A stretch of DNA of 64,000 bases from an uncultured Candidatus Saccharibacteria bacterium (GTDB taxonomy: Bacteria > Patescibacteriota > Doudnabacteria > UBA920 > 2-01-FULL-46-14), in assembly GCA_964360335.1 (NCBI GenBank), contig CAYHVH010000002.1:804-64803 (forward strand), in the 5' to 3' direction. Shown piece after piece: positions 12,451 to 56,584 of this stretch (position 1 is its first letter; every line of letters starts with the position of its first letter). Made by a program: the position numbers and the translations under genes. The notes below the pieces were generated by a model. It saw only the letters and a list, made by a program, of their open reading frames with translations. It was not told where the DNA came from and did no database searches.

Positions 12451-13305
12451 GTGAATAACATCACAAGCCGAATAGTTAAAAGACTAAAGCTTCCCAAACC
12501 CACGTCGTACAAAGGTGACAACGGCCAACTTTTGATTATCGCAGGAAGCAAGCAGTACCACGGTTCGCTTCTTTATGCTATCAAAGCCGCCAGTAAAATC
12601 GTGGATTTGATTTATGTGCTGACGACAAAGGAAAATCAGCGACTGGTGCAACTGCTGAAGAACAGGAGTGCAGGGTTTATATCCGTTGGCGACCTCTCCC
12701 TCATTCCCTCCCCTCGCCAGGGGAGGGAGGTAAAAGCTGATTGCGTACTCATTGGACCGGGGATGGGGACGGGAGAACGGACTTATAAACTTGTAGAGAG
12801 AGTTTTGAAGAGCGGAGTCAAAGCGGTCCTAGACGCGGATGCCATTAATGTTTTGGATAAAAAATTACTTAATTTACTCGATACCAATCATATTTTGACT
12901 CCGCATAAAGGGGAATTCGGACGGCTATGGCAGAAATCTTCGACCTCTCCCTCATTCCCTCCCCATCGCCTGGGGAGGAAGGCCGAAGAGTTGATGCACA
13001 GATATGGCTCTACGATTGTACTAAAGGGCAGGGTAGATGTCGTAGCTCACGCCGAGCAAGGCTTAAAATTTAACTACACTGGCAACGAGGGGATGACCAA
13101 GGGAGGAACGGGGGATGTGCTGGCCGGGCTGATTGCAGGGCTTTTCTGCAAAAATGACGCCTTTGCGGCGGCCGCGGCTAGCGTTTATATAAACGGCTTG
13201 GCTGGCGATGAGCTTTATAAAAAAGTTGGGCCTTACTATAATGCCGAGGATTTGGTAGAGCAGATACCCCAAACGCTATGGCGTTTGATAAATCCTAAGC
13301 ACTAA
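12451..13305 (+). CDS. ADP-dependent NAD(P)H-hydrate dehydratase (YjeF C-terminal, carbohydrate-kinase-like)
   Basis: Motifs YKGDNGQLLIIAGS..YHGS, VLIGPGMG, HKGEF and KGGTGDVLAG. Start assigned to the GTG at 12451, just after the VanZ stop; the track ORF extends upstream into VanZ. The gene contains two copies of a GC-rich palindromic repeat. Confidence 0.75.
   Translation: MNNITSRIVKRLKLPKPTSYKGDNGQLLIIAGSKQYHGSLLYAIKAASKIVDLIYVLTTKENQRLVQLLKNRSAGFISVGDLSLIPSPRQGREVKADCVLIGPGMGTGERTYKLVERVLKSGVKAVLDADAINVLDKKLLNLLDTNHILTPHKGEFGRLWQKSSTSPSFPPHRLGRKAEELMHRYGSTIVLKGRVDVVAHAEQGLKFNYTGNEGMTKGGTGDVLAGLIAGLFCKNDAFAAAAASVYINGLAGDELYKKVGPYYNAEDLVEQIPQTLWRLINPKH
12691..12730 (+). repeat. GC-rich palindromic element, copy a (intragenic, in-frame)
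   Basis: gacctctccctcattccctcccctcgccaggggagggagg. It has a 9-bp perfect stem (ccctcccct / aggggaggg) around a cgcc loop. It lies within the NAD(P)HX dehydratase CDS and keeps the frame. Confidence 0.8.
12941..12982 (+). repeat. GC-rich palindromic element, copy b (intragenic, in-frame)
   Basis: cgacctctccctcattccctccccatcgcctggggaggaagg. Its first 23 nt are identical to copy a, 250 nt upstream in the same gene. Confidence 0.8.
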
Positions 13306-13405
13306 ATCCTAAATACTAAATAAATCCAAAATCATAAATCTCAAATCGTTCGGAATTTAAAGAGTTCGTATTTGTTTAGGATTTAGATATTAGAATTTAG
13401 AATTT
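13298..13405. repeat. AT-rich imperfect inverted repeat with short tandem 6-7-mers
   Basis: ctaaatcctaaatactaaataaatcc ... ggatttagatattagaatttag. The arms are near reverse complements and flank ~50 nt. Internal aaatcc / taaata / ctaaat periodicity. Lies between the dehydratase stop and the PIN gene start. Confidence 0.5.
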
Positions 13406-13413
13406 AACTTCCC

Positions 13414-13863
13414 ATGAAGGTCGTCATTGACACCAACATTTTAATCAGCGGTTCTTATGACGAATCTTCGCATTCTTTTAAGATACTCCAGGAAGTCATA
13501 GCCGGGAAGATTCAGGCTTGTGCGACGCATCAGACGATGAGCGAAAACCGGCAAATGCTTCGAAAACTGGTCAAGGACAGAAATTACCGGACTCTTTTGG
13601 AAAGCTATTTTCAAAAACTGCAAGTTACTAAACTTTTCAGGCCGCTTCAGGTCGTGGCAGACCCCGAGGACAATAAACTTTTTGAGTCCGCGGTGTCAGC
13701 CGGCGCCCAATATATCATCACCGAAGATCGGGAAGTTCTGGATGTTGAGGTATATCGCGACGTAAAAGTCATCACCCCAGAGGATTTTTGGGCGGTTTAC
13801 GAAAATCAAAGTGGCAGTGACTCGGCGTGGCAGGATTGGACGAAAATAGTGATGGGGAAATGA
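13414..13863 (+). CDS. PIN-domain protein (putative RNase / TA toxin-like)
   Basis: MKVVIDTNIL... with acidic residues (D5, E, D...ITED) in the PIN pattern. 149 aa. No obvious cognate antitoxin ORF upstream. Confidence 0.65.
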   Translation: MKVVIDTNILISGSYDESSHSFKILQEVIAGKIQACATHQTMSENRQMLRKLVKDRNYRTLLESYFQKLQVTKLFRPLQVVADPEDNKLFESAVSAGAQYIITEDREVLDVEVYRDVKVITPEDFWAVYENQSGSDSAWQDWTKIVMGK

Positions 13864-13875
13864 CTTTACGAACTA

Positions 13876-13930
13876 CCCCCACTCTTTCTTCCCCTATTTG
13901 CTTCGCTGTCAGGGGGAGAGGAAGAGGGGG
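13876..13930. repeat. GC-rich imperfect palindrome (related to the intragenic palindrome family)
   Basis: Left arm cccccactctttcttcccc, a 17-nt loop, right arm gggggagaggaagaggggg. Intergenic, upstream of the helicase gene. Confidence 0.5.
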
Positions 13931-13954
13931 TCATTGTGCTAGAATAATGGTGCT

Positions 13955-16933
13955 ATGCAGAAGACTAAGATCGAACTCAAAACCAAATCTAAGATTTTAG
14001 AAGGTTTAAATGATGAGCAGGCCCGAGCGGTGACTCACGGCGAAGGGCCGCTTCTGATTGTTGCTGGGGCCGGTACCGGCAAAACAACGGTTATCACCAG
14101 ACGCGTGGCTTACCTGATTGAACGGGGAATAAAACCGGAGCAGATTTTGGCGCTCGCTTTCGGCGACAAAGCCGCTCAAGAGATGGAAGAACGCGCGGAC
14201 AAGCTTTTGCCCTACGGCTACTACAATTTGCAAATTTCTACTTTCCACGCCTTCGCGGAATCGGTCCTCAAAGAGCACAGCCTGGAGATTGGCCTGCCGG
14301 ATTTTAAGGTGCTGGACGAGGTCGGCCAGTGGTTACTCATCAGAAATAACCTGGAAAAGTTTGACCTTGATTACTACCGGCCTCTGGGCAACCCCACGCG
14401 GTTTATTAAGGCCTTGGTTACGCACTTTGCCCGGGCCAAGGATGAACTTATTACCCCCGAGGAATACTTGGGATATGCGGAAAAACTTAAATTAGTATCT
14501 GACCAAGACCCTTCGACTTCACTTCGCTCCGCTCAGGGACTGAAATCGTTAGCGCCCGAGCTTGCCCGCCCGCTGAAGCTAGGCGAAGGCTGGGTCGAGG
14601 GCCAGGAACTCAAAAGGATTGCCGAGGTCGCCAACGCTTATCACGTTTATCAAAGACTTTTGCTGCAAAATAGCGTTTTGGATTTTGGGGATCTCATCAA
14701 TTATACCCTAACGCTTTTCCAGAAACGGCCGCGCGTTTTGGAGCTTTACCGGAAGCGTTTTCAGTACATCTTGATTGACGAGTTTCAGGATACGAATTAT
14801 GCGCAGTACGAGCTTTTGAAATTTCTGGCTGCGCCGAAAAACAACCTCACGGTCGTCGGCGACGACGACCAGAGTATTTTTAAGTTCCGCGGTGCTTCGA
14901 TTTCCAATATTCTGCATTTTCAAAAGGATTACCCGGACGCGGTGTTTGTTTCTCTCACCAGGAATTACCGGAGCGGCCAGAACATCTTGGACGAAGCCCA
15001 CCGGTTTATCCAGCAGAATGATCCGGACCGGCTGGAGGTCCGCCTCCAGCTTTCCAAAAAACTCCAAAATCCGGAGAACCTAAGAGGGGAGATTCAGCCG
15101 CTTCTGGCGCAAGACTATATCAGCGAGGCCCGACTGGTGGCAGAGAAAATCCTGGAATTTTTGAACAAAGACCCGGGTTTGACTTGGGACGACTTTGCCA
15201 TCCTGGCGCGCTCCCACGACACGCTCAATCCTTTTATCACGGTTCTGGAGGAAAATCACATTCCACACATTTATTTTGCCAACAAAGGCCTGTACAAAAA
15301 AGCCGCAATCTTGGATATTTTGGCCTATTTCCGGCTTTTGGACAATTATCACGAATCGCAGGCTTTGTACCGGGTGGCGAATTTTCCGCTGTTCCAAATT
15401 TCCCACGCCGCCATTGTGGAGCTTTCACACTTTGCCAAAAGGAAGTCGCTCTCGCTATTTGAAGCCTTCCGGCTGGCCCCGGCCGTCTTAAACCTTGACG
15501 AAAAAAGCCGGGAGGGACTCCAGAAACTTTTAATCCTTTTGGAGCAGCACGCCAAGCTCGCGCGCGAGAAGAGCGCCGAGCAAGTCTACATTCAGGTGGT
15601 AAACGATCTGGATTTTGCGGCAGCGGCCCTCCAGGATTATCAAAACGGGAAATATTTGGAAAATTTTCGGCGGCGCATCCAGGATTTTCAGGTCCAAAAT
15701 CCGGACAAAACTCTAAAGAACTTTATGCGGGAGCTTAATTTTGAGCAAGAGGCCGGGGGACTGGGAGAGTTGGAGTTTGACGCGGAAGCCGGCCCGGAGG
15801 CCGTAAAACTCATGACGGTCCACGGCGCCAAGGGACTGGAGTTTAGCCACGTGTTTGTCGTAGGGCTGGTGGATAAAAGATTTCCAAGTCTGGAGCGGCG
15901 GGAAGCGATCGAGATTCCGCAGGCGCTCATCAAAGAGGTTTTGCCGGTGGGGGACATTCATTTAGAAGAAGAGCGGCGGCTTTTCTACGTGGCGATGACC
16001 CGACCCAAAAAAACCTTGTTTTTGACGAGAGCCCTGGATTACGGGGGCAAGCTTCAGAAAAAGCCTTCCCGCTTTCTAGAGGAGCTAGGGCTTGCCCGAG
16101 CGACGGGGGCGAAGCCGACTGGCGAGGTGGTTTTTGCCGGAACCAACACGTCCGGAAGACCGCAAAGATTGCCGCTCCCAAAGTTGTTTTCCTTCACCCA
16201 AATCTCTGTCTTTAGAAGTTGTCCGCTGGAGTACAAATTCAAATATGTCCTGAAGCTCCCGCTTCCCGGTCGGGCAAGTTTGTCTTTCGGACAAACCATC
16301 CACCAAACCTTGGAAAAATTTTTGCGTCTCACGAAGCAACACCGGGAAAGTCAGGACCTCTTCGGTCAACACTCCGGAGCCGAACCTCTGGACTTTGACG
16401 CTCTCCGGAAGCTGTATCGCGAGTCTTGGACTGATGATTGGTACGAAAGCCGCGCGCAAATGGAAGATTACCGGGACAAAGGCGAGAAGATCCTGAAATT
16501 TTTCCATGAGGACTCAAAAACCAACCCCCCGCGTCCGAAATACCTCGAGGCGAATTTTAAACTTAAGCTCGGGCCGTATCTCCTGCAGGGTAGGATCGAC
16601 CGGGTCGACGAAGCCCCTGGGGGTTTGCTGATCATTGACTACAAAACCGGGCCTCCCCGGGGCATCAACAAAGTGGACAAAGAACAACTCCTCCTCTACC
16701 AGTGGGCCACGGAAGAGTTTCTGAAAGAACGCGTCGCCGATTTGCAATATTGGTTTCTTTGGGATAGTCTGAAAAAACAATCCTTTTTGGGGAGACCAGA
16801 AGAGATTACTAAACTTAAGGAAGATTTCACGGCGACCATTTCCGAAATCGTATCCGCCGTGCAGGGCGACGACTTTTATAACCGGGATTTGCACATCTCT
16901 CATGACTGCGAGTTCCGGGATTTAGGACTATGA
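13955..16933 (+). CDS. UvrD/PcrA/AddA-type SF1 helicase with C-terminal PD-(D/E)XK (RecB-like) nuclease domain
   Basis: Walker A AGAGTGKT; helicase motifs (DEFQDT, VGDDDQSIF, TRNYRS, MTVHGAKGLEF, VAMTR). C-terminal GRIDRVDE...LIIDYKTG is a RecB-family nuclease motif. 992 aa. Confidence 0.85.
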   Translation: MQKTKIELKTKSKILEGLNDEQARAVTHGEGPLLIVAGAGTGKTTVITRRVAYLIERGIKPEQILALAFGDKAAQEMEERADKLLPYGYYNLQISTFHAFAESVLKEHSLEIGLPDFKVLDEVGQWLLIRNNLEKFDLDYYRPLGNPTRFIKALVTHFARAKDELITPEEYLGYAEKLKLVSDQDPSTSLRSAQGLKSLAPELARPLKLGEGWVEGQELKRIAEVANAYHVYQRLLLQNSVLDFGDLINYTLTLFQKRPRVLELYRKRFQYILIDEFQDTNYAQYELLKFLAAPKNNLTVVGDDDQSIFKFRGASISNILHFQKDYPDAVFVSLTRNYRSGQNILDEAHRFIQQNDPDRLEVRLQLSKKLQNPENLRGEIQPLLAQDYISEARLVAEKILEFLNKDPGLTWDDFAILARSHDTLNPFITVLEENHIPHIYFANKGLYKKAAILDILAYFRLLDNYHESQALYRVANFPLFQISHAAIVELSHFAKRKSLSLFEAFRLAPAVLNLDEKSREGLQKLLILLEQHAKLAREKSAEQVYIQVVNDLDFAAAALQDYQNGKYLENFRRRIQDFQVQNPDKTLKNFMRELNFEQEAGGLGELEFDAEAGPEAVKLMTVHGAKGLEFSHVFVVGLVDKRFPSLERREAIEIPQALIKEVLPVGDIHLEEERRLFYVAMTRPKKTLFLTRALDYGGKLQKKPSRFLEELGLARATGAKPTGEVVFAGTNTSGRPQRLPLPKLFSFTQISVFRSCPLEYKFKYVLKLPLPGRASLSFGQTIHQTLEKFLRLTKQHRESQDLFGQHSGAEPLDFDALRKLYRESWTDDWYESRAQMEDYRDKGEKILKFFHEDSKTNPPRPKYLEANFKLKLGPYLLQGRIDRVDEAPGGLLIIDYKTGPPRGINKVDKEQLLLYQWATEEFLKERVADLQYWFLWDSLKKQSFLGRPEEITKLKEDFTATISEIVSAVQGDDFYNRDLHISHDCEFRDLGL

Positions 16934-17826: not shown

Positions 17827-17878
17827 CCGAGGGCGTCGAATTCATTTCGCGCCCGAGGCACATTCGAAAAGGGAGGCA

Positions 17879-19435: not shown

Positions 19436-20491
19436 ATGGCCGAAAACGACCAACAGAGATCAGACCAAGAGCCTAAGGACGAAGATTTGGAATTTATTGT
19501 CATGCCCCAGGGTGAAGGGCTGGCCGTAGGAAACTCTCTTCCCTCAAAGGCCGAGCCCGGTGCGCGGAGCAAGCCGTCCTTCAAAGTCTGGTTAGTGCTC
19601 CTCGTCCTGCTGCTGGTTTTGCTTGGTGGTTTGGTTTACTGGCGCTATCCGGATGTTCTAGAGCGACTTAATTTCGGCAAGCAGGGACCCGCGTCCTTGC
19701 CGGAGTTGAGCTTGCCTGCCGGGGAAGAGGAACGAGTCGATTCCGACAAGGACGGGCTTACCGACAAGGAGGAATTTGATCTGGCCCTTAATCCGCAAAA
19801 GGCCGACAGTGACGATGACGGCCTGGCAGACAGCGATGAAATCAAGATTTATGGCTCGGACCCGCTGCTTCTGGATACGGACAATGACGGGTTTGACGAC
19901 GGCCGCGAAGTAGCCCTAGGTTACAGTCCTGTAAGCCCGTCCCCAGAGAAAGCCGGTGCCGAGGAACTTCAGCTTTGGACCGAGCGGATTCGCGTGCAGG
20001 GTTTGCATGAACCAACCAAAACCACCTTGGCGCTCAAGAGTTTTGACTCGGACCAGCCGGAGTCGGCCTATGTCAACAGCCAATACGGATATCGGTTGGT
20101 TTTACCCGCGGCCTTGACCTACCGCGAAGCTCAAGGTCAGGGCCTTGTTGGATTTTATGTAGCGGGCACCACCCCGGCCGACAGCGACCCCGCCACAGAC
20201 CCAATCAGCATCAATGTGGCTGTAAAAACGGGAAGCCAAACCTTGGAGGATTGGCTCAAGGACTTCCACCAGCCGGCAGACTATGGAAAAGCGGAAAATC
20301 TGGCAGTGAACAACCTCCAGGCGATACGCCTCCGCGGCCTCAAAACCGAAACCTGTCCCCAGGATAAGACTTTCTTCCTGAGACCAGAGCAAAGCGGAAC
20401 GGTGATTGTCTTGACTTGGACCTGCAATGAAAACACGGCATATAGCCCGATATATGAACAAATTATTACGAGTTTTGAGTTCGTGCAATGA
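19436..20491 (+). CDS. Membrane-anchored protein with thrombospondin-type-3-like Ca-binding Asp repeats
   Basis: Single TM (VWLVLLVLLLVLLGGLVYW), then DSDKDGLTDKEE / DSDDDGLADSDE / DTDNDGFDDGRE repeats (the DxDxDG calcium-binding motif). Confidence 0.7.
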   Translation: MAENDQQRSDQEPKDEDLEFIVMPQGEGLAVGNSLPSKAEPGARSKPSFKVWLVLLVLLLVLLGGLVYWRYPDVLERLNFGKQGPASLPELSLPAGEEERVDSDKDGLTDKEEFDLALNPQKADSDDDGLADSDEIKIYGSDPLLLDTDNDGFDDGREVALGYSPVSPSPEKAGAEELQLWTERIRVQGLHEPTKTTLALKSFDSDQPESAYVNSQYGYRLVLPAALTYREAQGQGLVGFYVAGTTPADSDPATDPISINVAVKTGSQTLEDWLKDFHQPADYGKAENLAVNNLQAIRLRGLKTETCPQDKTFFLRPEQSGTVIVLTWTCNENTAYSPIYEQIITSFEFVQ

Positions 20492-21669
20492 GTAGCATTT
20501 TGTCCACTGATAAAACTTTGCGCGACCATCAGCACATCAAAGTCCAATCGGCTCAAGAAACGCGTCTGAAACAGGAGCTTCAGAGTCGGACCGACGCGGA
20601 AAGCCAGAGGATAGAGCGTTATTTGGCCATGCCCGACTTATCACGTACTGAAGGCAGCCCGCTTCGGGAACTAGTAAAGCGGATAGTTAATCTGCCCGAT
20701 TTTAAGGATTTTGATGTTATCCAGGTCCCCGAGATCGTGCCCGCGGACATTAGTTTTGATTTATTTGATTTTCCGAAAGACCATCCAGCCAGATCAAAAT
20801 CTGATACCTATTACGCGGACTCAAACCACATTCTACGCACGCATACAACTGTGATGTGGTATTACTATCTCAAGCACCCCGCTATTAAAAGACGAATTGC
20901 GAATGGGGAAGCGGTTGGTTCATTCTGCTATGGCAAAGTCTATCGCAAAGATGAAATTGACCGGCATCACATGAATGTATTTCACAATATGGACGGCTGG
21001 TATCTTATCCCAAAGGACCAAAAAATAATTACCAGCCAGGACTTACAGGATGTTCTCGCGATAATTGCCAAATCGAATTTTGGTCTACGGGTAAAATATC
21101 GATTCAACGAAGATACCTTTCCATACACTGTCCCATCATTGGAAATGGAAATCGATAAAGGGGATGGCAAGTGGCTTGAAGTAGTCGGCGCTGGTATTGT
21201 AAAAGGGAGTGTGCTGGACAAATTAGGCGTCGATTCTGCGGAATACAATGGCTGGGCGTTTGGATTTGGATTGGAACGTTTGGCGATGATTAGCATGGAG
21301 CTGCCTGATATTCGGCTGTTTTGGTCCCAGGACGGACGCGTTAAAAAGCAGCTTGTCCTTGGAAACAAATTTAGGGAAGTTTCGAAATTTCCGTCGATCA
21401 CGCGCGATATTTCATTTATCGTTGATAAGAGTTTTGTTCCTAATGATTACTTTGATCTAATACGCGATATTGGCGGAGATCTGGTGGAGGAGGTTCGACT
21501 TTTGGACAAATACGAAGACCTGGAGAAGTTTGGACGAGATAAGGTGAGTTACACTTACCGGGTGGTGTACCGCAGTCCTCAAAGAACCCTGACCGCGGAG
21601 GAAGTAGAAAAGCTGCAAAGCAGACTTTATCAGCAAACAAAGATGCAGTATAAAGCCGACCTGAGATGA
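20488..21669 (+). CDS. pheS: Phenylalanine--tRNA ligase alpha subunit, catalytic portion
   Basis: Class II aaRS motifs: FPKDHPAR (motif 1), GKVYRKDEIDRHHMNVFHNMDG (motif 2), GWAFGFGLERLAM (motif 3). It lacks the N-terminal YLGKKG segment, which lies 1 kb upstream at 19283-19414. No pheT follows. Confidence 0.85.
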   Translation: MSSILSTDKTLRDHQHIKVQSAQETRLKQELQSRTDAESQRIERYLAMPDLSRTEGSPLRELVKRIVNLPDFKDFDVIQVPEIVPADISFDLFDFPKDHPARSKSDTYYADSNHILRTHTTVMWYYYLKHPAIKRRIANGEAVGSFCYGKVYRKDEIDRHHMNVFHNMDGWYLIPKDQKIITSQDLQDVLAIIAKSNFGLRVKYRFNEDTFPYTVPSLEMEIDKGDGKWLEVVGAGIVKGSVLDKLGVDSAEYNGWAFGFGLERLAMISMELPDIRLFWSQDGRVKKQLVLGNKFREVSKFPSITRDISFIVDKSFVPNDYFDLIRDIGGDLVEEVRLLDKYEDLEKFGRDKVSYTYRVVYRSPQRTLTAEEVEKLQSRLYQQTKMQYKADLR

Positions 21670-21677: not shown

Positions 21678-23792
<2,115 letters not shown>

Positions 23793-24572: not shown

Positions 24573-25532
24573 ATGAAAAAAACGGTGAATGTTGGGGGCA
24601 TTCCGGTCGGGGCGGATTATCCAGCTCTGGTTATAGGAGAGATAGGTATAAACGCCAATGGCGTTATGGATATCGCAATGAAGCTGATTGATGTTGCCGC
24701 AGATGTTGGGTGTGGTGCCGTCAAGTTCCAAAAGCGCGATATTAATAAAGTTTTCTCAGCAGACGCGCTGGCGAAATCCTGGGCAGGGGGGATGCCCGCA
24801 GAGTTGCTCCAAAACGCAATTGCCAGAGGAGTTCTTCAGGAAGAGAATGTAAGACGTTTACGGGCAACGAATTTCTCGGATGTTACAGAAGGCGATTTCA
24901 GATGGACGATCGAGTTTACGGAGGAAGAGTTCAAACAAATTGACGCATACTGTAAAAAGAAGGAGATTATATGGTACGCCTCTCCCTGGGATATGGAGAG
25001 TGTGGACGTACTTGAGCGGCTCGGGGTACCATGTTACAAGGTCGCGTCTGCATCGATCTCGGATCATCCGCTTTTGAAGCATATCCGGTCAAAAGGTAAG
25101 CCCGTTATCCTTGCAACCGGGATTAGCGAGATGAACGAGGTAGATGCCGCGGTGGATATTCTGGGCAGAGAGAACCTTATTATTCTACATTGTGTTTCCA
25201 CTTATCCGTCCGAAGACTCTGAGCTGAATCTCCGCGTCATTCATACTCTACAGAATCGCTTTCCCGGTGTTCCCGTCGGCTACAGTGGACACGAGCGGGG
25301 TGTAGCGACATCAGTGGCGGCAGTGGCCCTTGGTGCCTGCATGGTTGAGCGGCATATTACGCTTGATCGCGGAATGTATGGCCCTGATCAGGCAGCTAGT
25401 GTCGATCCAGAAAACCTCCGAATAATGGTCCGCGATATTCGGAGTGTTGAGGCCGCGCTTGGTGATGGTGTGAAACGTTTTCTCGATAGGGAGCGCCCCG
25501 TCAGAAAAATGTTGGAGACCCGCTCTTCCTAA
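24573..25532 (+). CDS. NeuB-family PEP-dependent ulosonic/nonulosonic acid synthase (TIM-barrel part; no C-terminal SAF domain)
   Basis: ALVIGEIGINANGVMDIAMKLIDVAADVGCGAVKFQKR and ILHCVSTYPS...GYSGHERG match NeuB/SpsE. 319 aa, ending before the usual antifreeze-like (SAF) domain. Confidence 0.8.
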   Translation: MKKTVNVGGIPVGADYPALVIGEIGINANGVMDIAMKLIDVAADVGCGAVKFQKRDINKVFSADALAKSWAGGMPAELLQNAIARGVLQEENVRRLRATNFSDVTEGDFRWTIEFTEEEFKQIDAYCKKKEIIWYASPWDMESVDVLERLGVPCYKVASASISDHPLLKHIRSKGKPVILATGISEMNEVDAAVDILGRENLIILHCVSTYPSEDSELNLRVIHTLQNRFPGVPVGYSGHERGVATSVAAVALGACMVERHITLDRGMYGPDQAASVDPENLRIMVRDIRSVEAALGDGVKRFLDRERPVRKMLETRSS

Positions 25533-25555
25533 GTATGTCGTTAGGTAAGTAAGGG

Positions 25556-25651
25556 TCGGACATCTTCGAGACCCTGATGGGCGACGAAGTCGGCCCGCGG
25601 AAGAAATTCATTCAAACGCACGCCAAAACCGTTAAGAATTTGGATATTTAG
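25556..25651 (+). repeat. Second copy of the gyrB 3' end (last ~96 bp including the stop)
   Basis: 25576-25651 is 76/76 identical to 23717-23792. The preceding 20 nt differ only at synonymous codon positions ([10 protein letters not shown] versus [10 protein letters not shown]). Confidence 0.85.
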
Positions 25652-26671: not shown

Positions 26672-26836
26672 AGTAGTCCCTCGACTTCGCTCATCCTTCG
26701 GCAAGCTCAGGATGACCTTGAGCCAGCCGAAACGGTCAGGACATTCGACTTCTTTCAACAAGAGGTCGAGGTCCTGCGGTAAGCAGGAACGAGACCATGA
26801 GCGAAGCGAGGAGGCGTTAGCGAGGAACGAAGTCGA
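26672..26836 (+). promoter_or_regulatory. Structured 5' leader element shared by rplK and rpmA (copy E1)
   Basis: About 165 nt, ending ...gaacgaagtcgaATGgc at the rplK start. Segment 26742-26752 (cattcgacttc) is the perfect complement of 26829-26839 (gaagtcgaATG). cctcgacttcgctc pairs with gagcgaagcgagg. Confidence 0.5.
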
Positions 26837-36467: not shown

Positions 36468-36582
36468 TCGACTTCGTTCTCCGCTTTGCTTCCAACTTCG
36501 CTCATGGTCTTCGTTCAGCTTGCGGCTGAACTTCGACCTCTAATTGAAGAAGTCGAATGTCCCGAGCGAAGTCGAGGGACTA
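36468..36582 (-). promoter_or_regulatory. Structured 5' leader element shared by rplK and rpmA (copy E2)
   Basis: The reverse complement reads (ta)gtccctcgacttcgctc gggacattcgacttc...gaacgaagtcgaATGgc. It is near-identical to E1 minus a ~46-nt block, and again ends exactly at the r-protein start codon (rpmA). Confidence 0.5.
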
Positions 36583-41000: not shown

Positions 41001-43601
41001 ATGAATCTTTTGAGGAAAATTTTAGGAGTAGAAAATCCGGTCAGAGGCAGCGAGCATATGGTTGAGAAAATCAATCAACTCGAAAAAGAATTCGAGCAGC
41101 TGTCGCGTAAGGAGCTCCGGGAGAAGACTAATTTTTGGCAAGAGCACATCCGTAACCTCTCCCGGCCTCCAGCCACTCTCCCCTCGTCAGGGGAGGGAAA
41201 AGTTGTAGACTATCTAAACCAAATTCTTCCGGAGGCTTTTGCGGCAGTCCGGGAAGCGGCGAAAAGGACCTTGGGCCAGCGGCACTATGATGTCCAGCTC
41301 GTGGGAGGCATGGTGCTCCATCACGGCAAAGTCGCGGAGATGAAGACCGGCGAGGGAAAAACCTTGGCTGCCACATTAGCCGTGTATTTAAACGCCCTGA
41401 CTGGCAAAGGAGTGCATATCGTAACCGTCAACGATTATCTCGCGCGGCGCGATGCCTCCTGGATGGGTCAAATTTACGACTATCTGGGTTTATCCGTGGC
41501 CGCAATTCAGCACGAGCAGTCGTTTCTTTATACCGAAAAGGACCTCAAAGACGAAATCATTACGGAAGAAGAAAGAACCGGGGTCCAAACTGACGTCAAA
41601 AACTTGGTTTCCCGCTCGCGGAAAGAGGCCTACGCCGCAGACATTCTCTACGGGACGAACAACGAATTTGGCTTTGATTACCTGCGCGACAATATGGCCG
41701 GGAATCTGGAACAGATGGTTCAGCGCGAACTCCACTACGCCATCGTCGACGAGGTTGATTCGATTTTGATTGACGAGGCCAGAACGCCTTTGATTATTTC
41801 TGCGCCAGACGTGGAAAGCACTGACCTGTATCGGGATTTTGCGGGTTTTGCCAAGACTCTGACCGCCGAGGACTACCTGGCGGAGGAAAAACACCGGCAG
41901 GTTACTTACACCGAGAAAGGTTACGAGAAGCTGGAAAAAAAATACGGGCAGGAAATTTATAGCGACATCAAGCTCCGGCACCACGCCGACAGCGCCCTGC
42001 GGGCGGAGATTTTGTTTAAAAAAGACAAAGATTACGTCGTGCGCGAGGGCGAGATTCTCATCGTGGACGAGTTCACCGGCCGGCTGATGCTTGGGCGGCG
42101 CTACTCCGAAGGTTTGCACCAGGCCATCGAAGCCAAAGAAGGAGTGGAGGTCAAACACGAGTCCAAAACCTTGGCGACCATCACCTTCCAGAACTACTTC
42201 CGGCTTTATCAGAAACTGGCTGGGATGACCGGCACGGCCGCGACCGAAGCCGAGGAGTTTCACAAAATTTACAAACTCGACGTGGTGGAAGTTCCGACCA
42301 ACCGGGCGATGATCCGGGCTGACCTGCCGGACAGCGTTTACAAAACCGAGGCCGGAAAATTTCAAGCCATCGTCCGGGAAGTAAAACGCCGTCACGGGCT
42401 CGGCCAACCGCTTTTGATCGGCACCATTTCGATTGAAAAAAACGAACACCTCTCAAACCTCCTCCAAAAGGCCGGCGTCACGCACGAAGTTCTAAACGCC
42501 AAAAACCACGAAAGAGAAGCACAGATTATTGCCCAGGCCGGCCGCCTGGGCGCCGTGACTCTGGCTACGAACATCGCGGGCCGCGGCGTGGACATTATTC
42601 TAGGCGGCAACCCTCCCGATGGGGAGGAAGCCGAAAAAATCAAGGCCGCAGGCGGGCTCCATGTCTTGGGCACCGAACGGCACGAGGCGCGGCGGATAGA
42701 CAACCAGCTCCGCGGCCGCTCCGGGCGCCAAGGGGATCCCGGGTCCTCGCAATTCTTCCTTTCTTTAGAAGACGACTTGATGCGGCTGTTCGGCGGCGAC
42801 CGCGTAAAAGGGCTGATGGATACTTTGGGGATCCCCGAGGACGAGCCGATCGAGCACGGCATGGTGAGCAAAACCATAGAAAGTGCCCAAAAGAAAATTG
42901 AGGGGATGAATTTTGACCTGCGAAAGCACGTCTTGGAATTCGACGACGTCCTGAACAAACAGCGGGAGGTGATTTACGGGAGGCGCCGCAAGATTTTGAG
43001 GGGTGAACTGGACTTGAAAACTTATATTTTGGACAAAGTCGCGCAAGAGATTACAGAGATTGCCACTAACGAAACGGACCAAAAACTGGCGCATCAAGCC
43101 GTGAACGCAATTTTTCCGGTTCCTCAAACTCTCGGAGAGGCCAGAAAAGAAATGGAGCTGTGGATAAGTGATTTGACAAACGCCGCCAAAACTACCTACG
43201 AGGAGAAAGAAAAACGGTTGACCGCCCCTCTAATGCGGCAAATTGAACGAATTATCGCCCTGCAGGCCATCGATAATCTCTGGATGGAACACTTGGACAC
43301 CATGGATCACCTCCGGCAATCCGTGCGGCTCCGAGGTTACGCCCAAAAAGATCCGCTCGTAGAATACAAACAAGATGGCCTGCGGCTTTTTGAGCGGATG
43401 CTCAAAGAGATTGACAAAACCATCGTCTACACGATTTACAAGGTCGAGGTCAGGCCGCGGGAAGAGGTCGCTCCGGTGGGCCGGCCCGCTGAGCGGGCCC
43501 CGGGCCAAGCGAAGCTCGGCCGGAATGATCCCTGTCCCTGCGGTTCGGGCAAGAAATGGAAGAAATGCGGAATGATAAACGCGCCGTATCATAAAAAATA
43601 A
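41001..43601 (+). CDS. secA: Preprotein translocase ATPase SecA (with C-terminal Zn-finger)
   Basis: DEAD motor motifs (MKTGEGKTL, DEVDSILIDEARTPLIIS, TGTA) and the C-terminal CPCGSGKKWKKCG. It contains an in-frame GC-rich palindrome insertion near the N-terminus. Confidence 0.95.
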   Translation: MNLLRKILGVENPVRGSEHMVEKINQLEKEFEQLSRKELREKTNFWQEHIRNLSRPPATLPSSGEGKVVDYLNQILPEAFAAVREAAKRTLGQRHYDVQLVGGMVLHHGKVAEMKTGEGKTLAATLAVYLNALTGKGVHIVTVNDYLARRDASWMGQIYDYLGLSVAAIQHEQSFLYTEKDLKDEIITEEERTGVQTDVKNLVSRSRKEAYAADILYGTNNEFGFDYLRDNMAGNLEQMVQRELHYAIVDEVDSILIDEARTPLIISAPDVESTDLYRDFAGFAKTLTAEDYLAEEKHRQVTYTEKGYEKLEKKYGQEIYSDIKLRHHADSALRAEILFKKDKDYVVREGEILIVDEFTGRLMLGRRYSEGLHQAIEAKEGVEVKHESKTLATITFQNYFRLYQKLAGMTGTAATEAEEFHKIYKLDVVEVPTNRAMIRADLPDSVYKTEAGKFQAIVREVKRRHGLGQPLLIGTISIEKNEHLSNLLQKAGVTHEVLNAKNHEREAQIIAQAGRLGAVTLATNIAGRGVDIILGGNPPDGEEAEKIKAAGGLHVLGTERHEARRIDNQLRGRSGRQGDPGSSQFFLSLEDDLMRLFGGDRVKGLMDTLGIPEDEPIEHGMVSKTIESAQKKIEGMNFDLRKHVLEFDDVLNKQREVIYGRRRKILRGELDLKTYILDKVAQEITEIATNETDQKLAHQAVNAIFPVPQTLGEARKEMELWISDLTNAAKTTYEEKEKRLTAPLMRQIERIIALQAIDNLWMEHLDTMDHLRQSVRLRGYAQKDPLVEYKQDGLRLFERMLKEIDKTIVYTIYKVEVRPREEVAPVGRPAERAPGQAKLGRNDPCPCGSGKKWKKCGMINAPYHKK
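41160..41200 (+). repeat. GC-rich palindromic element, copy e (in-frame inside secA)
   Basis: ctctcccggcctccagccactctcccctcgtcaggggagggaa, with stem ctctcccct / aggggaggg and loop cgtc. It encodes ...SRPPATLPSSGEGKV..., in a stretch not matched in the E. coli SecA alignment (from memory; no search run). Confidence 0.75.
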
Positions 43602-51625: not shown

Positions 51626-51632
51626 ACGGAAC

Positions 51633-53792: not shown

Positions 53793-53796
53793 ATCC

Positions 53797-54518: not shown

Positions 54519-54976
54519 AGCGCTGCCTGCTTTCTGAATTGCATCACCCGCCTACCAACATAAGCGATTCCAAAAAGGTTGAAGGCCAACCCGACCCAAA
54601 AAAATTGTGTTTGGTATTGCGCGGCGACGCTCAAGAAACCGGAGATTCCCAAGATCGGCACTAAATTTACGAGATAATGGGCGCAACAGGAGATCATTGC
54701 GGCTGTGGAAGTCGTTCCGGAAACCGCCAAGACTTTGCCTGAAGAACCACCAGCGCGGTGAACTGAGTTTTTGAGGTATGTAAAGAGGCTTACTTGGATG
54801 CCAAAGCCGATAGCTAAAGCCAAAATGAAATACCAAAAACTTCTAAATTGATCTCTTGCGAAGGTCCAATCGTTTAACGAGGTCAGAACAAAAAAATAGA
54901 CAGCAAGCAAGATGCTACTTGCTAATATGCCAAAAAATGCGGCCCTTATTTTGAGGCTATTTTCTCTTGGAGACAT
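54515..54976 (-). CDS. Polytopic membrane protein, hypothetical (CCAHY motif)
   Basis: 153 aa with 4 hydrophobic helices. Overlaps csoR by 20 nt. Confidence 0.45.
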   Translation of the reverse strand: MSPRENSLKIRAAFFGILASSILLAVYFFVLTSLNDWTFARDQFRSFWYFILALAIGFGIQVSLFTYLKNSVHRAGGSSGKVLAVSGTTSTAAMISCCAHYLVNLVPILGISGFLSVAAQYQTQFFWVGLAFNLFGIAYVGRRVMQFRKQAAL

Positions 54977-55226
54977 TGAAGACTGAAAGGATTTCCCTAA
55001 TGGCTTTACCCTCTTTACCGGATTTCATTTGCTCGATGACGTGGGTTTCAAGATGGTTCCCTAGGAGCAAATCCTCTACGCTGGAGAGCGCTTCTTTCAC
55101 CGCTTGCGACTGGTTGATGATATCAATGCAGTACTTGTCTTCGTCAACCAACCGCTCAAGACCGCGCACCTGGCCCTCAACAATCTTCAGTCGTCTAATC
55201 AGTTTGTTTCTGATATCGTGTTTCAT
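54957..55226 (-). CDS. csoR: CsoR/RcnR/FrmR-family metal-sensing transcriptional repressor
   Basis: 89 aa helical protein with metal-ligand pattern Cys (YCIDIINQ) ... His/His (LGNHLETHV), as in CsoR (DUF156). First gene of the minus-strand metal operon. Confidence 0.75.
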   Translation of the reverse strand: MKHDIRNKLIRRLKIVEGQVRGLERLVDEDKYCIDIINQSQAVKEALSSVEDLLLGNHLETHVIEQMKSGKEGKAIREILSVFNVSKRK

Positions 55227-55393
55227 AATTTTGCATTTTCTTCACTTTTCCGCCAAAGGCGGATCCGCCTCGGGCGGAAAACTTTGTACTTCCATGATAC
55301 CCCCAGGGGGTATATCTGTCAAGAGTCGATATTCTTCGAGCGAAGTCGAGAAGAGTTCTCGACAGGCTCGAACAATAATATTATAATTTAGCT

Positions 55394-56584
55394 ATGAAAA
55401 AAGTTCATCCTGAGCGTAGCCGAAGGATTCTGGTAGCAATGAGCGGGGGTGTGGACTCTTCGGTGGCGGCGGCCTTGCTAAAAAAGCAAGGTTATCTAGT
55501 GGTGGGCGCGTATATGAAAAACTTCTCCGAAGAGTCCTGGAAAGGAGTGATCAAAGCCGATTGTCCATGGCGGCAGGACCTCGCGGACGCCCGCGCAGTC
55601 TGCGAACTTTTGGGAATTGAGCTTCGGAGCTTTAATTTCGAAAAAGAGTATTCAGAAAAGGTCATCGAATACTTTTTCGCCGAGTATGCCGCCGGCCGGA
55701 CTCCCAATCCCGACATCAAGTGCAATAAAGAAATTAAATTTGGCTTATTTTTGGAAAAGGCCCTGGGGTTAGGCTTTGATTATATCGCCACCGGACATTA
55801 TGCGCGGATTCGAAAGGCTAACGCCCCCCAACCCCCGCTTAAGGTAAGAGGGGGAGAGGGGGAGTTATGCCTTCTCAAAGGCCGCGACCCTCAAAAAGAT
55901 CAGTCTTACTTTCTCTACACCCTCACCCAAAACCAACTCGCTCGGACTTTATTTCCGATCGGCAAGTACACCAAGCTCCAAGTCCGGGCCTTGGCGCGAA
56001 AATTCGGCCTCCCCAACGCCGAAAAAAAGGACTCGCAGGGAGTGTGCTTTGTCGGGCACATCAACTTACGCGAATTCTTGAAGCAGCGAATACCCGAAAG
56101 GGTAGGGGAGATTGTTACGACTTCCGGACAAGTCATTGGATCTCATCATGGCGCTGCCTACTTTACGATTGGCCAAAGGGAAGGAATAGGAATTGGCGGC
56201 GGTAGCCCTTATTATGTTGTGCAAAAGGACGTCATAAAGAATCGGGTAGTCGTCGCACGAAAAACTTTAGTCCCTGAGCTTGCCCCCCCGCCGAAGCCAG
56301 GCGAAGGCTGGGTCGAGGGGCCACCGACTTTGTATTCAAAATCCGTGATGGTCAAGGACATTCACTGGATTGGTGAAAAACCCAAACTGCCGCTTAAGTG
56401 TTCTGCCAAAATCCGCTACCAGCAAGAAGATCAGGAGTGCGCTGTATTTCCCTCCCCAGGCGTGGGGAGGGTAGGGGAGAGGTCGCTCTTGGTCAAATTC
56501 AAAATCCCCCAGTTCGCCCCTGCTCCCGGCCAGGCGGTAGTGTTTTATGACGGCGAAAAGGTCTTAGGAGGCGGTACTATTTAA
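55394..56584 (+). CDS. mnmA: tRNA-specific 2-thiouridylase MnmA
   Basis: PP-loop VAMSGGVDSSVAA; catalytic Cys region; DQSYFLY. About 35 aa longer than typical because it contains two GC-rich palindrome-encoded segments. Confidence 0.9.
   Translation: MKKVHPERSRRILVAMSGGVDSSVAAALLKKQGYLVVGAYMKNFSEESWKGVIKADCPWRQDLADARAVCELLGIELRSFNFEKEYSEKVIEYFFAEYAAGRTPNPDIKCNKEIKFGLFLEKALGLGFDYIATGHYARIRKANAPQPPLKVRGGEGELCLLKGRDPQKDQSYFLYTLTQNQLARTLFPIGKYTKLQVRALARKFGLPNAEKKDSQGVCFVGHINLREFLKQRIPERVGEIVTTSGQVIGSHHGAAYFTIGQREGIGIGGGSPYYVVQKDVIKNRVVVARKTLVPELAPPPKPGEGWVEGPPTLYSKSVMVKDIHWIGEKPKLPLKCSAKIRYQQEDQECAVFPSPGVGRVGERSLLVKFKIPQFAPAPGQAVVFYDGEKVLGGGTI
55822..55864 (+). repeat. GC-rich palindrome variant (in-frame inside mnmA), copy g
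   Basis: cccccaacccccgcttaaggtaagagggggagagggggag: arms ccccc(aa)ccccc / ggggg(aga)ggggg around a 13-nt loop. It encodes NAPQPPLKVRGGEGE. Confidence 0.55.
56444..56480 (+). repeat. GC-rich palindromic element, copy f (in-frame inside mnmA)
   Basis: tttccctccccaggcgtggggagggtaggggagagg, with a perfect 8-bp stem ccctcccc / ggggaggg and loop aggcgt (same subtype as copy c). It encodes [12 protein letters not shown]. Confidence 0.75.

Follow-up and report, generated by a model that had tools for sequence, protein, structure and literature searches.

In-frame hairpin elements in conserved genes of a Candidatus Doudnabacteria genome, probable remnants of a small mobile DNA element

Six copies of one hairpin family are present in the 64,000-nt stretch of a Candidatus Doudnabacteria genome that we analysed as a whole (the window), and four of them lie inside protein-coding genes: two in the NAD(P)HX dehydratase gene, one in secA, and one, antisense, in mnmA. 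The other two are intergenic. In our view, the six copies probably descend from a non-autonomous, MITE/REPIN-like mobile DNA element that is tolerated in frame, and are its remnants. In the literature, we found no account of in-frame hairpin elements in candidate-phyla-radiation (CPR) bacteria. The features concerned are as follows.

12451..13305, plus strand: NAD(P)H-hydrate dehydratase gene, 284 aa (TIGR00196, E = 2.7e-57), hosting copies A and B
12690..12730 (model match 12689-12728), plus strand: copy A, inside the dehydratase gene
12941..12980 (model match 12940-12980), plus strand: copy B, same gene, 251 nt 3' of copy A
13875..13931, no strand given: loosely related C-rich/G-rich palindrome between a PIN gene and a helicase gene
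21716..21770 (model match 21724-21770), minus strand: copy C, intergenic, head to head with copy D
21783..21825 (model match 21783-21820), plus strand: copy D, intergenic, upstream of gyrB
21858..23792, plus strand: gyrB, start corrected, with copies C and D upstream and outside the gene
41001..43601, plus strand: secA (NCBIfam PRK12904, 1083.7 bits), hosting copy E
41152..41198, plus strand: copy E, inside secA
55394..56584, plus strand: mnmA (NCBIfam PRK00143, E = 3.3e-127), hosting the F-type palindrome and copy G
55817..55868, plus strand: F-type palindrome of a second family, inside mnmA
56261-56319: non-palindromic repeat in mnmA
56447..56486 (model match 56449-56486), minus strand: copy G, inside mnmA, antisense to the gene

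Members of the family are laid out as a box, (C)GACCTCTCC, then a spacer, then a hairpin CCCTCCCC-N6/7-GGGGAGGG; exact stretches of 18-24 nt are common to the window copies. The elements have a GC content of 63-74% and the surrounding window 40-55%, a background that is not AT-rich, contrary to what had been stated of it. The palindrome CCCC-N2-10-GGGGAG has 12 matches at 6 palindromic sites, with 1.5 expected and at least 12 found in 0 of 100 shuffles, while ACCTCTCC, with 7 matches vs. 1.5 expected, lies 4-17 nt 5' of five of the six sites. A covariance model (R1), trained on 13 Doudnabacteria copies, found exactly six copies in the window (E 6e-18 to 3e-13) and, reverse-strand echoes excepted, no further window match below E = 1e-5. 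Of the 14 perfect GC-rich hairpins in the window, six belong to the family; this class of hairpin had 27 raw matches against a Markov-shuffle mean of 7.3. The first-pass annotation had counted at least eight copies of one element; six stand, while those at 55822-55864 and 13876-13930 are other palindromes. The F-type palindrome (TAACGCCCCCCAACCCCCGCTTAAGGTAAGAGGGGGAGAGGGGGAGTTA, nested, peptide ANAPQPPLKVRGGEGEL) was rejected as a member because it has no match to R1; it folds well as DNA (z = -3.6, equalled in 0 of 200 shuffles), and its family recurs at the SecA site of the Doudnabacteria orthologues P0011 and P0030, as well as in further MnmA orthologues. The intergenic palindrome at 13875-13931 (DNA fold z = -2.2) was likewise rejected, with no covariance-model match at E <= 1.

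The two copies that had been placed in the dehydratase gene, at 12691-12730 and 12941-12982, are both model matches. Copy A (60.3 bits, E = 1.3e-16) consists of the box CGACCTCTCC, the spacer CTCATT, and the hairpin CCCTCCCC-TCGCCA-GGGGAGGG, which forms a perfect 10-bp hairpin at 12705-12728. Copy B (E = 7.6e-14) has the same box and spacer, followed by CCTCCCC-ATCGCCT-GGGGAGG. Although the two share 24 identical bases, they are read in frames one base apart and encode DLSLIPSPRQGREV (A) and STSPSFPPHRLGRK (B). The secA copy, first reported at 41160-41200, is matched at 41152-41198 (copy E, E = 3.3e-13); it reads AACCTCTCC, a degenerate hairpin 1 CGGCCTCCAGCC, A, then CTCTCCCC-TCGTCA-GGGGAGGG, and encodes NLSRPPATLPSSGEGK. 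Of the two mnmA segments, only that at 56444-56480 belongs to the family. This is copy G, the top match to the model (64.6 bits, E = 5.9e-18), which is translated as 13 residues.

Copies C and D form an inverted, REPIN-like doublet 5' of gyrB. On the minus strand, copy C (E = 4e-15) reads CGACCTCTCC, a degenerate hairpin 1 TGACTTTCA, then CCCTCCCC-ACGCCT-GGGGAGGG; copy D (E = 2.4e-14, DNA fold z = -3.2) has the box variant CAACCTCTCTCC, the spacer TTCT, and the hairpin CTCTCCCC-TCGCCA-GGGGAGAG. They had been assigned to the gyrB 5' region (21716-21750 and 21787-21825) but are intergenic because gyrB starts at ATG 21858: NCBIfam GyrB models begin to align at residue 60-66 of the long open reading frame (ORF), and the corrected N terminus agrees with the syntenic orthologue in L124. 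The spacer between gyrB and the PheS-like gene on its 5' side (stop at 21669) measures 188 nt with the doublet and only 12 nt in L124.

The first-pass proposal of lineage-specific insertions is supported by every test applied to it. The segments are missing from most close orthologues of SecA, MnmA, and the dehydratase (whose record P0241 is 100% identical to the window protein). The SecA alignment includes an empty site in P0002, at 78% identity, and related elements at the insert site in P0006 and P0023. Nor are the segments present in E. coli MnmA (2DER) or Thermotoga Nnr (2AX3), which for MnmA bears out the claimed absence from the E. coli homologue: the window protein has +10, +17, and +6 residues, the 10 at the F-type palindrome and the 6 at copy G. 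No insert of at least 5 residues is found at the copy B site in 51 of 58 dehydratase orthologues; at the copy A site, 16-19 of the 58 have at least 5 extra residues, as do 20/65, 21/65, and 9/65 MnmA orthologues at three sites. The additions at these hot spots in MnmA and the dehydratase have a high content of S, R, P, and G. Among orthologues of all three proteins, SecA included, some have the same loops occupied by other palindrome-derived inserts. Orthologues with the same peptide also keep the perfect palindrome in their DNA, the opposite of the pattern (same peptide, non-palindromic DNA) that had been set against the original proposal. No very recent gain or loss was caught, the SecA copy being present in all three near-identical strains. 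Orthologous copies are more conserved than their flanks, which is unexpected for decaying selfish DNA and speaks against a mobile element.

In relatives, full-length copies are about 59-64 nt long and form a nested palindrome with two internal hairpins, enclosed by terminal inverted repeats of 11-13 bp (TTCGACCTCTCCC), namely (T)TCGACCTCTCCC / GGGAGAGGTCGA(A). Hairpin 1 is small and variable in sequence, usually with a 4-7-bp stem and a TTC-like loop, whereas hairpin 2 is fixed (CCCTCCCC-N6-GGGGAGGG). The window copies are one-ended derivatives of this form, and hairpin 1 is gone from most. Three intact copies have 11-bp inverted ends and DNA fold z of -4.2 to -6.0:

L103:5584-5646: intact copy
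L125:1575-1637: intact copy
L101:2220-2282: intact copy

Three more intact copies come from JGI metagenomes. The same architecture occurs within real genes in Saccharibacteria and Nomurabacteria, and also in Rikenellaceae (nearly always intergenic), Clostridia, alphaproteobacteria, and viral contigs. What had been taken for a single family of one genome is one of many, recurring across CPR lineages and with relatives outside them. In CPR, copies do not avoid coding sequence: 14 of 22 lie deep inside open frames (0.61 for random positions), and the ORFs that host them are genuine, encoding PurL, a class I aminoacyl-tRNA synthetase, MnmA, OMP decarboxylase, Ddl, and DinB. In Rikenellaceae, the corresponding figures are 2 of 25 and 0.74.

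Could the element be a functional nucleic-acid signal kept by the host, a structured RNA or single-stranded DNA motif whose copies spread or persist through a role in, for example, protein binding, processing, or replication/recombination? We regard this as unlikely, although several findings fit it. Hairpin 1 has changed in a compensatory manner among 32 distinct copies drawn from several phyla: 80.6% of cells pair vs. 31-38% with slid partners, two-sided changes number 43 vs. 4-16, and the covariation score is 0.68 vs. at most 0.13, values reached by 0 of 500 shuffles. CPR, Rikenellaceae, Clostridia, and viral contigs all have the order box, hairpin 1, hairpin 2, and triplex structures are conceivable for the homopyrimidine/homopurine mirror arms. 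Identity is 92-97% between orthologous copies and 67-75% for the conserved codons next to them; copy A matches its counterpart in L124 at 37 of 40 positions (flanks 72-75%), and copy G its counterpart in L126 at 38 of 39 (flanks 67-72%). However, recent re-insertion or gene conversion among copies could account for such conservation just as well, and the covariation, which we also count in favour of a mobile element, is to be expected too if a transposase must recognise the fold. Moreover, Rfam gave no family match at gathering thresholds or at E <= 5, the copies run either with or against the host gene and lie at unrelated points of genes that are themselves unrelated, and most orthologues dispense with them.

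Compared with the closest empty orthologues, the net length gain is 21-30 nt, while the recognisable element sequence spans 38-47 nt, so that simple cut-and-paste insertion is not the whole story. Copies might instead be made or homogenised locally by repair or replication errors, for instance through template switching at quasi-palindromes or microhomology-mediated patching from another copy, with loops overwritten rather than transposed into. The small net gain, which implies that native codons were replaced, is in line with this idea, as are empty sites that often encode (N/D/E/K)-L as RAYCTC, like the start of the element box, and the absence of a visible target-site duplication at the copies. 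We nevertheless find it quite improbable, since several genomes carry intact, sharply bounded copies that retain both inverted ends, identical sequence families occur in unrelated genes, distant phyla, and viral contigs, and the intergenic doublet amounts to ~176 nt extra relative to the syntenic genome.

The claim that intragenic copies preserve the reading frame holds for all four, and all seven intragenic inserts in the window, of any family, keep the frame and contain no stop codons, so ordinary translation suffices. Copies have on average 5.1 of 6 frames free of stops (3.7 for random window segments and 4.4 for shuffled copies), because their arms are pyrimidine-only or purine-only; these encode Pro/Ser/Leu and Gly/Glu/Arg. 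The AlphaFold model of MnmA has a mean pLDDT of 89.3, and each of its three inserts is a low-confidence stretch lying between beta-strands: pLDDT is 67-76 at the F-type insert and drops to 76 at copy G (residues 351-360, between strands 347-353 and 365-374). Location in surface loops of essential enzymes and retention in some orthologue pairs might suggest lineage-specific protein adaptations with incidental DNA palindromy, which is very unlikely and contradicted by the frame and orientation data: one DNA is read in two sense phases and antisense, giving unrelated peptides, is also found between genes, is conserved at the nucleotide level with perfect stems, and yields segments modelled with low confidence. 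Nor is there any real chance of assembly or chimera artefacts, even if GC-rich hairpins may misassemble locally in short-read metagenomes, as three assemblies (one from NCBI, two from ENA) agree fully on the SecA insert while differing by single residues elsewhere, the window MnmA sequence is recorded on 4 contigs, same-site orthologous copies exist in the independent genomes L124 and L126, and every host ORF is intact.

If the copies do descend from a mobile element, it would have been copied to new sites by a trans-acting enzyme recognising the folded hairpins, most plausibly, as a guess, a single-strand HUH/RAYT-like transposase. In-frame landings in permissive surface loops would persist and be translated, a step that the intragenic copies bear out in part, and copies may later shrink or overwrite a few native codons. 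The result would be what is seen today, hot-spot loops of essential enzymes filled with different palindrome-derived peptides in each lineage. No transposase was found, all-against-all ORF clustering over ~1.3 Mb of loci giving no family common near elements, and the search for a longer element bounded by the same inverted ends found none; these negative results, like the absence of a visible target-site duplication, weigh against the mobile-element reading.

Rickettsia palindromic elements (RPEs) are AT-rich. The proposed RPE-like colonisation of conserved ORFs is supported by the two sense phases, the antisense and intergenic copies, and the empty orthologues, but the element is RPE-like in behaviour only and is not an RPE, because length, base composition, and host do not fit. 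Elements here are 38-64 nt long with 63-79% GC and pyrimidine-only and purine-only arms, and they reside in CPR bacteria, other phyla having extragenic relatives; a sequence relationship to RPEs was neither seen nor expected. PMC10969869 describes RPEs (Ogata et al. 2000, 2002) as ~150 bp long and found only in Rickettsia, and the likeness extends to repeated palindromic DNA lying in frame in unrelated conserved genes, extra peptides that fit the fold, the coexistence of several families in a lineage, the lack of a known transposase, and the decay of copies over time.

The Rikenellaceae relatives are extragenic, like REPs. REPs are extragenic by definition and have a GTAG- or CGTC-type head, whereas the elements here have the head (TT)CGACCTCTCC and two hairpins, and their CPR copies are mostly intragenic. 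A search of the neighbourhoods of the copies turned up no RAYT gene. With RAYT-mobilised REPs/REPINs, they share short GC-rich imperfect palindromes, a conserved single-stranded head beside the hairpin, inverted doublets (here copies C/D and the full-length forms), compensatory change that keeps pairing, no target duplication, and possible long persistence (PMC3116915, PMC3337134). ERIC, Correia, and cyanobacterial MITEs resemble them in terminal inverted repeats, in being small and non-autonomous, and in occasional in-frame host-ORF fusion (PMC10969869, PMC3184786). In contrast to bacterial MITEs, the element, at 55-64 nt, is at or below the usual lower size limit, has neither a visible target-site duplication nor a parent insertion sequence that we could find, and resides in frame in essential genes as a rule rather than an exception. 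Mitochondrial GC clusters and the translational-bypass elements (byps) of Magnusiomyces are also short GC-rich palindromic mobile elements inside protein-coding genes. Byps disrupt the frame, and the ribosome passes over them, whereas the elements described here keep the frame and are free of stop codons.

In the window, the pattern CCCC-N2-10-GGGGAG has 12 strand-wise matches at 6 palindromic sites, compared to 1.5 expected, and 0 of 100 shuffles reach 12. The motif ACCTCTCC lies 4-17 nt upstream on the same strand at five of these six sites (7 matches vs 1.5 expected); the repeat unit is therefore oriented, with the order (C)GACCTCTCC, spacer, CCCTCCCC, a 6-7-nt loop and GGGGAGGG, and every copy has the head (TT)CGACCTCTCC(C) on the 5' side of the hairpin. 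A family covariance model, trained on 13 Doudnabacteria copies, found exactly six copies in the window with E-values from 6e-18 to 3e-13 and, except for reverse-strand echoes of the same hairpins, no further window sites below E = 1e-5.

Copies of the hairpin-element family found in the window by the covariance model
Copy A: 12689-12728, plus strand, in the NAD(P)H-hydrate dehydratase gene
Copy B: 12940-12980, plus strand, in the NAD(P)H-hydrate dehydratase gene
Copy C: 21724-21770, minus strand, intergenic
Copy D: 21783-21820, plus strand, intergenic
Copy E: 41152-41198, plus strand, in secA
Copy G: 56449-56486, minus strand, in mnmA, antisense to the gene

The element has a GC content of 63-79%, and the window copies are 38-47 nt long. 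A window-wide census of perfect hairpins of high GC content gave 14 distinct hairpins, 6 of them family copies, with 27 raw matches vs a mean of 7.3 in Markov shuffles; this census was used instead of a GC-island scan in 30-nt windows, which was dropped as too noisy because the genome is ~50% GC. The first-pass annotation had counted eight copies, six of which do belong to the family, while the remaining two, at 55822-55864 and 13876-13930, are unmatched by the model. The former does form a nested palindrome, with a DNA fold z of -3.6, but one of another family, hereafter F-type, and the latter, which had been proposed as a looser copy, is an intergenic palindrome (z = -2.2).

The host genes of the intragenic copies encode NAD(P)H-hydrate dehydratase, SecA and MnmA. 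As had been proposed from the sequence, the reading frame is preserved: four copies of the family and one of the F-type lie in frame in the dehydratase, secA and mnmA genes, and every intragenic insert in the window maintains the frame and is stop-free in that of its gene. The peptides they encode include FPSPGVGR and NLSRPPATLPSSGEGK. Copies A and B have 24 bases in common, which are read in frames one base apart, as DLSLIPSPRQGREV and STSPSFPPHRLGRK; the phase of copy E is that of copy A, and copy G is antisense to mnmA. Protein-level adaptation, in which the inserts would be kept for the peptides they encode, is effectively excluded. Stop-free frames average 5.1 of 6 per copy vs 3.7 in random window segments and 4.4 in composition-matched shuffles, and the arms encode P/S/L where they are pyrimidine-only and G/E/R where they are purine-only; both the paucity of stop codons and the composition of the arms fit with tolerance in loops. 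Copies C and D, which had been assigned to the 5' region of gyrB, are both intergenic, the gyrB ATG at 21858 agreeing with the N-terminus of the syntenic orthologue. They lie head to head (21716-21825) like a REPIN doublet, and the PheS-like gene and gyrB are 188 nt apart in the window vs 12 nt in a syntenic genome; a second doublet is found at 950-1048 of L103, a related locus. The gene upstream of gyrB (20488-21669) matches NF051887, "PheS-related mystery ligase SrmL", with E = 7.1e-70, which is below the cutoff of the model, also scores for mitochondrial-type PheS, and has a C-terminal FDX-ACB-like part. Judging from these matches, its product appears to be a single-chain PheRS-like enzyme.

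The homology of its SecA, MnmA and dehydratase assigns the window to Candidatus Doudnabacteria, in the candidate phyla radiation (CPR). Three assemblies, one from NCBI and two from ENA, have an identical SecA insert despite single-residue differences elsewhere, the window SecA allele being P0361, one residue from the cluster representative, and the window MnmA sequence is recorded on four contigs. This agreement between assemblies and multiple contigs speaks against misassembly, a concern voiced in the first-pass annotation, which is excluded for practical purposes; an assembly or chimera artefact is likewise effectively excluded.

Alignment of orthologues bears out the idea that the inserts are lineage-specific. 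Most SecA orthologues are empty at the site of copy E, including P0002 with 78% identity, whose site is empty at the DNA level. Six other orthologues carry inserts there; those of P0006 and P0023 are related nested palindromes with compensated stems (CCCTCTCC and GGAGAGGG), and that of P0011 is an F-type palindrome, as in the window mnmA. Consistent with the suggested absence of the inserts from E. coli homologues, the window MnmA has 10, 17 and 6 additional residues when compared to E. coli 2DER, the alignment being continuous outside these three inserts, and the dehydratase has twice 4 additional residues when compared to Thermotoga 2AX3. Five or more extra residues are present in 20, 9 and 21 of 65 MnmA orthologues at the three sites, in 16-19 of 58 dehydratase orthologues at site A and in 7 of 58 at site B, and these residues are enriched in S, R, P and G. 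A similar insert pattern is seen in the UvrD-like helicase when the window is compared to L124, from a Doudnabacteria relative.

Several types of insert peptide recur, including TLPSSGEG, NAPQPPLKVRGGEGEL, FPPLEGEGKGG, SLR..AKQS...PRDD and IPNSKFQIPN. Where DNA is available for types other than the family itself, several are strong palindromes, including those at mnmA site 1 of the Doudnabacteria relative L126 (z = -5.3) and in the L124 helicase (z = -5.7), and others are weak (z between -0.6 and -1.7). One more family, found in frame, consists of long perfect hairpins encoding SLR..AKQS...RH...PRDD / ARNDR-type peptides. Its carriers are MnmA, dehydratase and helicase orthologues (P0124, P0130, P0149, P0150, P0157 and P0158) and L126:3494-3571, and its hairpins, such as the L126 mnmA copy with z = -5.3, recur at several hot-spot loops across different Doudnabacteria. 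After the dehydratase gene, an AT-rich intergenic stretch (13289-13399) contains TAAATCC/TAAAT-type units forming a 25-nt inverted repeat, and sequence of this type seems to underlie the IPNSKFQIPN-type in-frame inserts of MnmA orthologues. A 59-nt direct repeat (14543-14601 and 56261-56319, 86% identical) lies in frame in the unrelated UvrD-like helicase and mnmA genes and is read in the same frame in both, as SLAPELARPLKLGEGWVEG and TLVPELAPPPKPGEGWVEG, with 17 residues absent from E. coli MnmA. It was ruled out as a family member, being not palindromic (DNA fold z about 0), so that it represents another type of in-frame repeat.

An AlphaFold model of the window MnmA, produced with a 74-sequence alignment, has a mean pLDDT of 89.3. 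The first-pass annotation had asked whether the inserts map to surface loops; in this model, all three MnmA inserts are low-confidence segments between beta-strands, and the only other low-confidence internal segment is residues 41-60.

Inserts in the AlphaFold model of the window MnmA, with mean pLDDT per 10-residue block and flanking strands
Residues 141-160: pLDDT 67 and 76, between strands 137-141 and 158-162
Residues 291-310: pLDDT 58 and 52, between strands 284-289 and 314-325
Residues 351-360: pLDDT 76, between strands 347-353 and 365-374

The inserts are thereby predicted to be in surface loops of the protein, with its fold intact.

At site A, the window and L124 are identical at 37 of 40 positions (92%), compared to 72-75% in the flanks and 73% gene-wide. 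At site G, the window and L126 are identical at 38 of 39 positions (97%), compared to 67-72% in the flanks and 70% gene-wide. The copies are thus better conserved than their hosts, which is unexpected for decaying junk, and at these two sites such conservation points to constraint on fold and sequence, re-insertion at hot spots, or gene conversion among copies. The net gain relative to the closest empty orthologues is 21-30 nt (7-10 residues), which is shorter than the recognisable element of 38-47 nt; therefore, some native codons have been replaced. Empty sites often read RAYCTC, resembling the start of the box.

Complete copies were revealed in related loci by overlapping forward and reverse matches of the model.

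Intact copies in related loci
L103:5584-5646: TCGACCTCTCCC-GGTGTTCGACCA-CCCTCCCC-ACGCCT-GGGGAGGG-GTTG-GGGGAGAGGTCGC
L125:1575-1637 and L101:2220-2282: overlapping model matches

These three copies have 11-bp inverted ends and two internal hairpins, with a DNA fold z from -4.2 to -6.0. Three more, found with a strict pattern in JGI metagenomes, have inverted ends that extend to TTCGACC...GGTCGAA, with GACC-to-GGTC lengths of 55, 55 and 60 nt. The six intact copies are 59-64 nt long, with terminal inverted repeats TTCGACCTCTCCC / GGGAGAGGTCGAA of 11-13 bp. An intact length of 63 nt, or 21 codons, fitted the first three copies and was dropped on the metagenome lengths. Compared to intact copies, all window copies keep one end only, and hairpin 1, the small variable stem between the box and the fixed hairpin, is gone from A, B, D and G and degenerate in C and E; a mini-hairpin, GGCC-GGA-GGCC, is still present in the spacer of the copy G orthologue in L126. 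Copies are dense in some relatives, with about nine model matches in the 4.3-kb L125 contig. No direct repeat that would represent a target-site duplication flanks the intact copies, whose TTC...GAA flanks are indistinguishable from a longer inverted repeat. In the loci examined, there were no end pairs 300-4000 nt apart around a transposase-sized ORF, as expected of a parent insertion sequence (IS), and no RAYT (Y1 HUH transposase) among the called genes; all-against-all BLASTP clustering of their 4,337 ORFs gave only housekeeping and phage clusters, with no shared transposase.

How widespread the family is was assessed by scanning one genome per species, with taxonomic labels of metagenome-assembled genomes as deposited, using a pattern with 20 fixed bases. 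This identified at least 119 loci vs ~45 chance matches estimated for the whole library, and the family is therefore far commoner than chance. Among the matches listed are 1) multi-copy families in Tidjanibacter, Alistipes and other Rikenellaceae, 2) Oscillospiraceae, Faecalibacterium and alphaproteobacteria, 3) Saccharibacteria, Nomurabacteria, Peribacteria and Doudnabacteria, and 4) a Chloroflexia contig (L081, CAWHEB010000001.1, 680 kb) with a copy at 2271-2302, CGACCTCTCCCTACCCTCCCCTCGCCAGGGGAGGGAAAA, near-identical to the Doudnabacteria consensus. By its sequence, the last might reflect transfer between phyla or the sharing of elements by a CPR symbiont with its host. The element is also present at 46 loci on viral contigs; a putative viral contig of 10.2 kb (L157, IMGVR_UViG_3300035520_000635) has six Rikenellaceae-type copies and may be a phage/prophage vehicle or else a piece of host DNA wrongly classed as viral. 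A stem of at least 4 bp, a feature left free by the search pattern, is formed by 43 of 68 distinct spacers of at least 11 nt. In 32 distinct copies with a 15-nt spacer, hairpin 1 pairs in 80.6% of cells vs 31-38% with slid partners, shows 43 two-sided changes vs 4-16, and has a covariation score of 0.68 vs at most 0.13; 0 of 500 shuffles match the observed values. In Rikenellaceae and Clostridia-type copies, conservation stops at the edge of the element. How copies are placed relative to open frames is sharply different between lineages.

Copies lying deep in an open frame, and the fraction for random positions
CPR: 14 of 22 copies (0.64); random positions 0.61
Rikenellaceae: 2 of 25 copies (0.08); random positions 0.74
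Clostridia-type: 7 of 13 copies (0.54); random positions 0.82
Other phyla: 26 of 48 copies (0.54); random positions 0.82

The host ORFs in CPR are real genes, encoding PurL (with two oppositely oriented copies), a class I aminoacyl-tRNA synthetase, OMP decarboxylase, D-Ala-D-Ala ligase (Ddl), a GT2 glycosyltransferase, PGA_cap and DinB. In these other CPR genomes, the PurL, class I aminoacyl-tRNA synthetase, Ddl, OMP decarboxylase and DinB copies are in frame, and a Nomurabacteria MnmA has a copy in the identical loop, after GHYA(R/K).

Taken together, these findings make it likely that the window copies are remnants of a mobile hairpin element. Their family is a DNA repeat whose ends are defined, whose fold covaries and whose presence or absence varies by lineage, and copies within essential genes lie in surface loops in a translation-compatible manner. 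A number of further palindrome families behave likewise, and the element has non-CPR relatives that stay out of genes. Copies would have spread by transposition of the hairpin-forming unit, with a trans-acting enzyme presumably driving the process. More tentatively, the family might be a cross-phylum one, with two hairpins and homopyrimidine/homopurine arms, a fold under selection and possibly carriage by phages, which is extragenic in ordinary bacteria, enters coding sequence freely in CPR and would there be a main source of the loops by which essential enzymes differ between lineages, with different palindrome families repeatedly striking the same SecA, MnmA, Nnr (dehydratase) and UvrD-like helicase loops. 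The copies, being better conserved than the surrounding genes, may have a host function or be continually renewed; that they are a structural signal maintained by the host is, in our estimation, unlikely, with sites empty in most SecA orthologues set beside the covarying fold. Patching mediated by repair or template switching, to be weighed with the replaced native codons on one side and the inverted ends of intact copies on the other, we find quite improbable. A mobile hairpin element is thus our preferred reading, and copies more conserved than host codons make the question of selfish vs functional elements directly testable.

Among the closest known systems are the Rickettsia palindromic elements (RPEs), which are found in frame in unrelated conserved genes, at the protein surface (PMC10969869). 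Like RPEs, the CPR elements are palindromic repeats in frame in unrelated protein-coding genes, and their inserts are predicted at the protein surface with the fold kept, according to the AlphaFold model; RPEs are likewise without a transposase, parent element or target duplication found. Unlike RPEs, which are ~100-150 bp with a conserved peptide of ~30-50 residues, they are 38-47 nt (59-64 nt when intact), with a net gain of 7-10 residues, and their host is Candidatus Doudnabacteria, not Rickettsia. RPEs are AT-rich, in contrast to the GC content of 63-79% here. REP/REPIN-RAYT systems (PMC3116915, PMC3337134) are similar in size, GC-rich hairpins, many copies, inverted doublets and compensatory change. 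However, four of the six window copies are intragenic, and only the Rikenellaceae relatives are extragenic as REPs are (2 of 25 in open frames); moreover, there is no GTAG/CGTC-type head and no RAYT in the examined loci. Intact copies resemble MITEs in having terminal inverted repeats, of which window copies retain one end, but show no visible target duplication, with no parent IS in the loci examined. Inserts of translational-bypass elements (byps) break the frame or have stops and are skipped, whereas the window inserts are in frame and stop-free. At gathering thresholds, no Rfam 15 model matched the window or seven loci, and at E <= 5 there were only chance hairpin matches to miRNA models, none on the elements. 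The first-pass annotation had not seen such elements described for this kind of genome, and we found no published account of palindromic or in-frame elements in CPR/Patescibacteria; a full-text search likewise returned no description of REPIN/RAYT in Patescibacteria or of the motif itself.

While RPEs, as selfish palindromes residing in essential genes, have been a long-standing curiosity of Rickettsia, the CPR elements look like a second, independent and broader case, in which the elements are much shorter and a minimum of five or six palindrome families compete for the same permissive loops. The difference between CPR, where coding sequence is not avoided, and Rikenellaceae, with 8% in open frames, offers a natural experiment on what bars repeats from genes. 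If genome-wide, the phenomenon would 1) explain part of the unexplained variation in CPR protein length and low-complexity loops, 2) provide a marker for typing strains and lineages, and 3) make repeat-derived loops a warning to annotators and structure predictors.

Other repeats are present in the window. On the plus strand, 19-12059 consists of seven tandem paralogous genes (293-542 aa) sharing only their C-terminal ~200 nt (60-72% DNA identity), which encode PF00391, the mobile ("swivel") domain of PEP-utilising enzymes (tested in four of the genes, with E between 2e-21 and 1.5e-26); their N-terminal ~400 residues have no Pfam match. A 104-nt direct repeat (23689-23792 and 25548-25651, 93% identical) appears to be a duplicated fragment of a gene end, its first copy forming the 3' end of gyrB and its second closely following a NeuB-family gene (24573-25532). 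Finally, the copies of a ~95-nt inverted repeat (26754-26848 and 36456-36548, 77-83% complementary), one entering the start of an ORF at 26837 (ATGGCAAAAAAA) and the other ending ATGGCTCACAAA on the minus strand, could be a 5' leader or promoter region shared by two genes.
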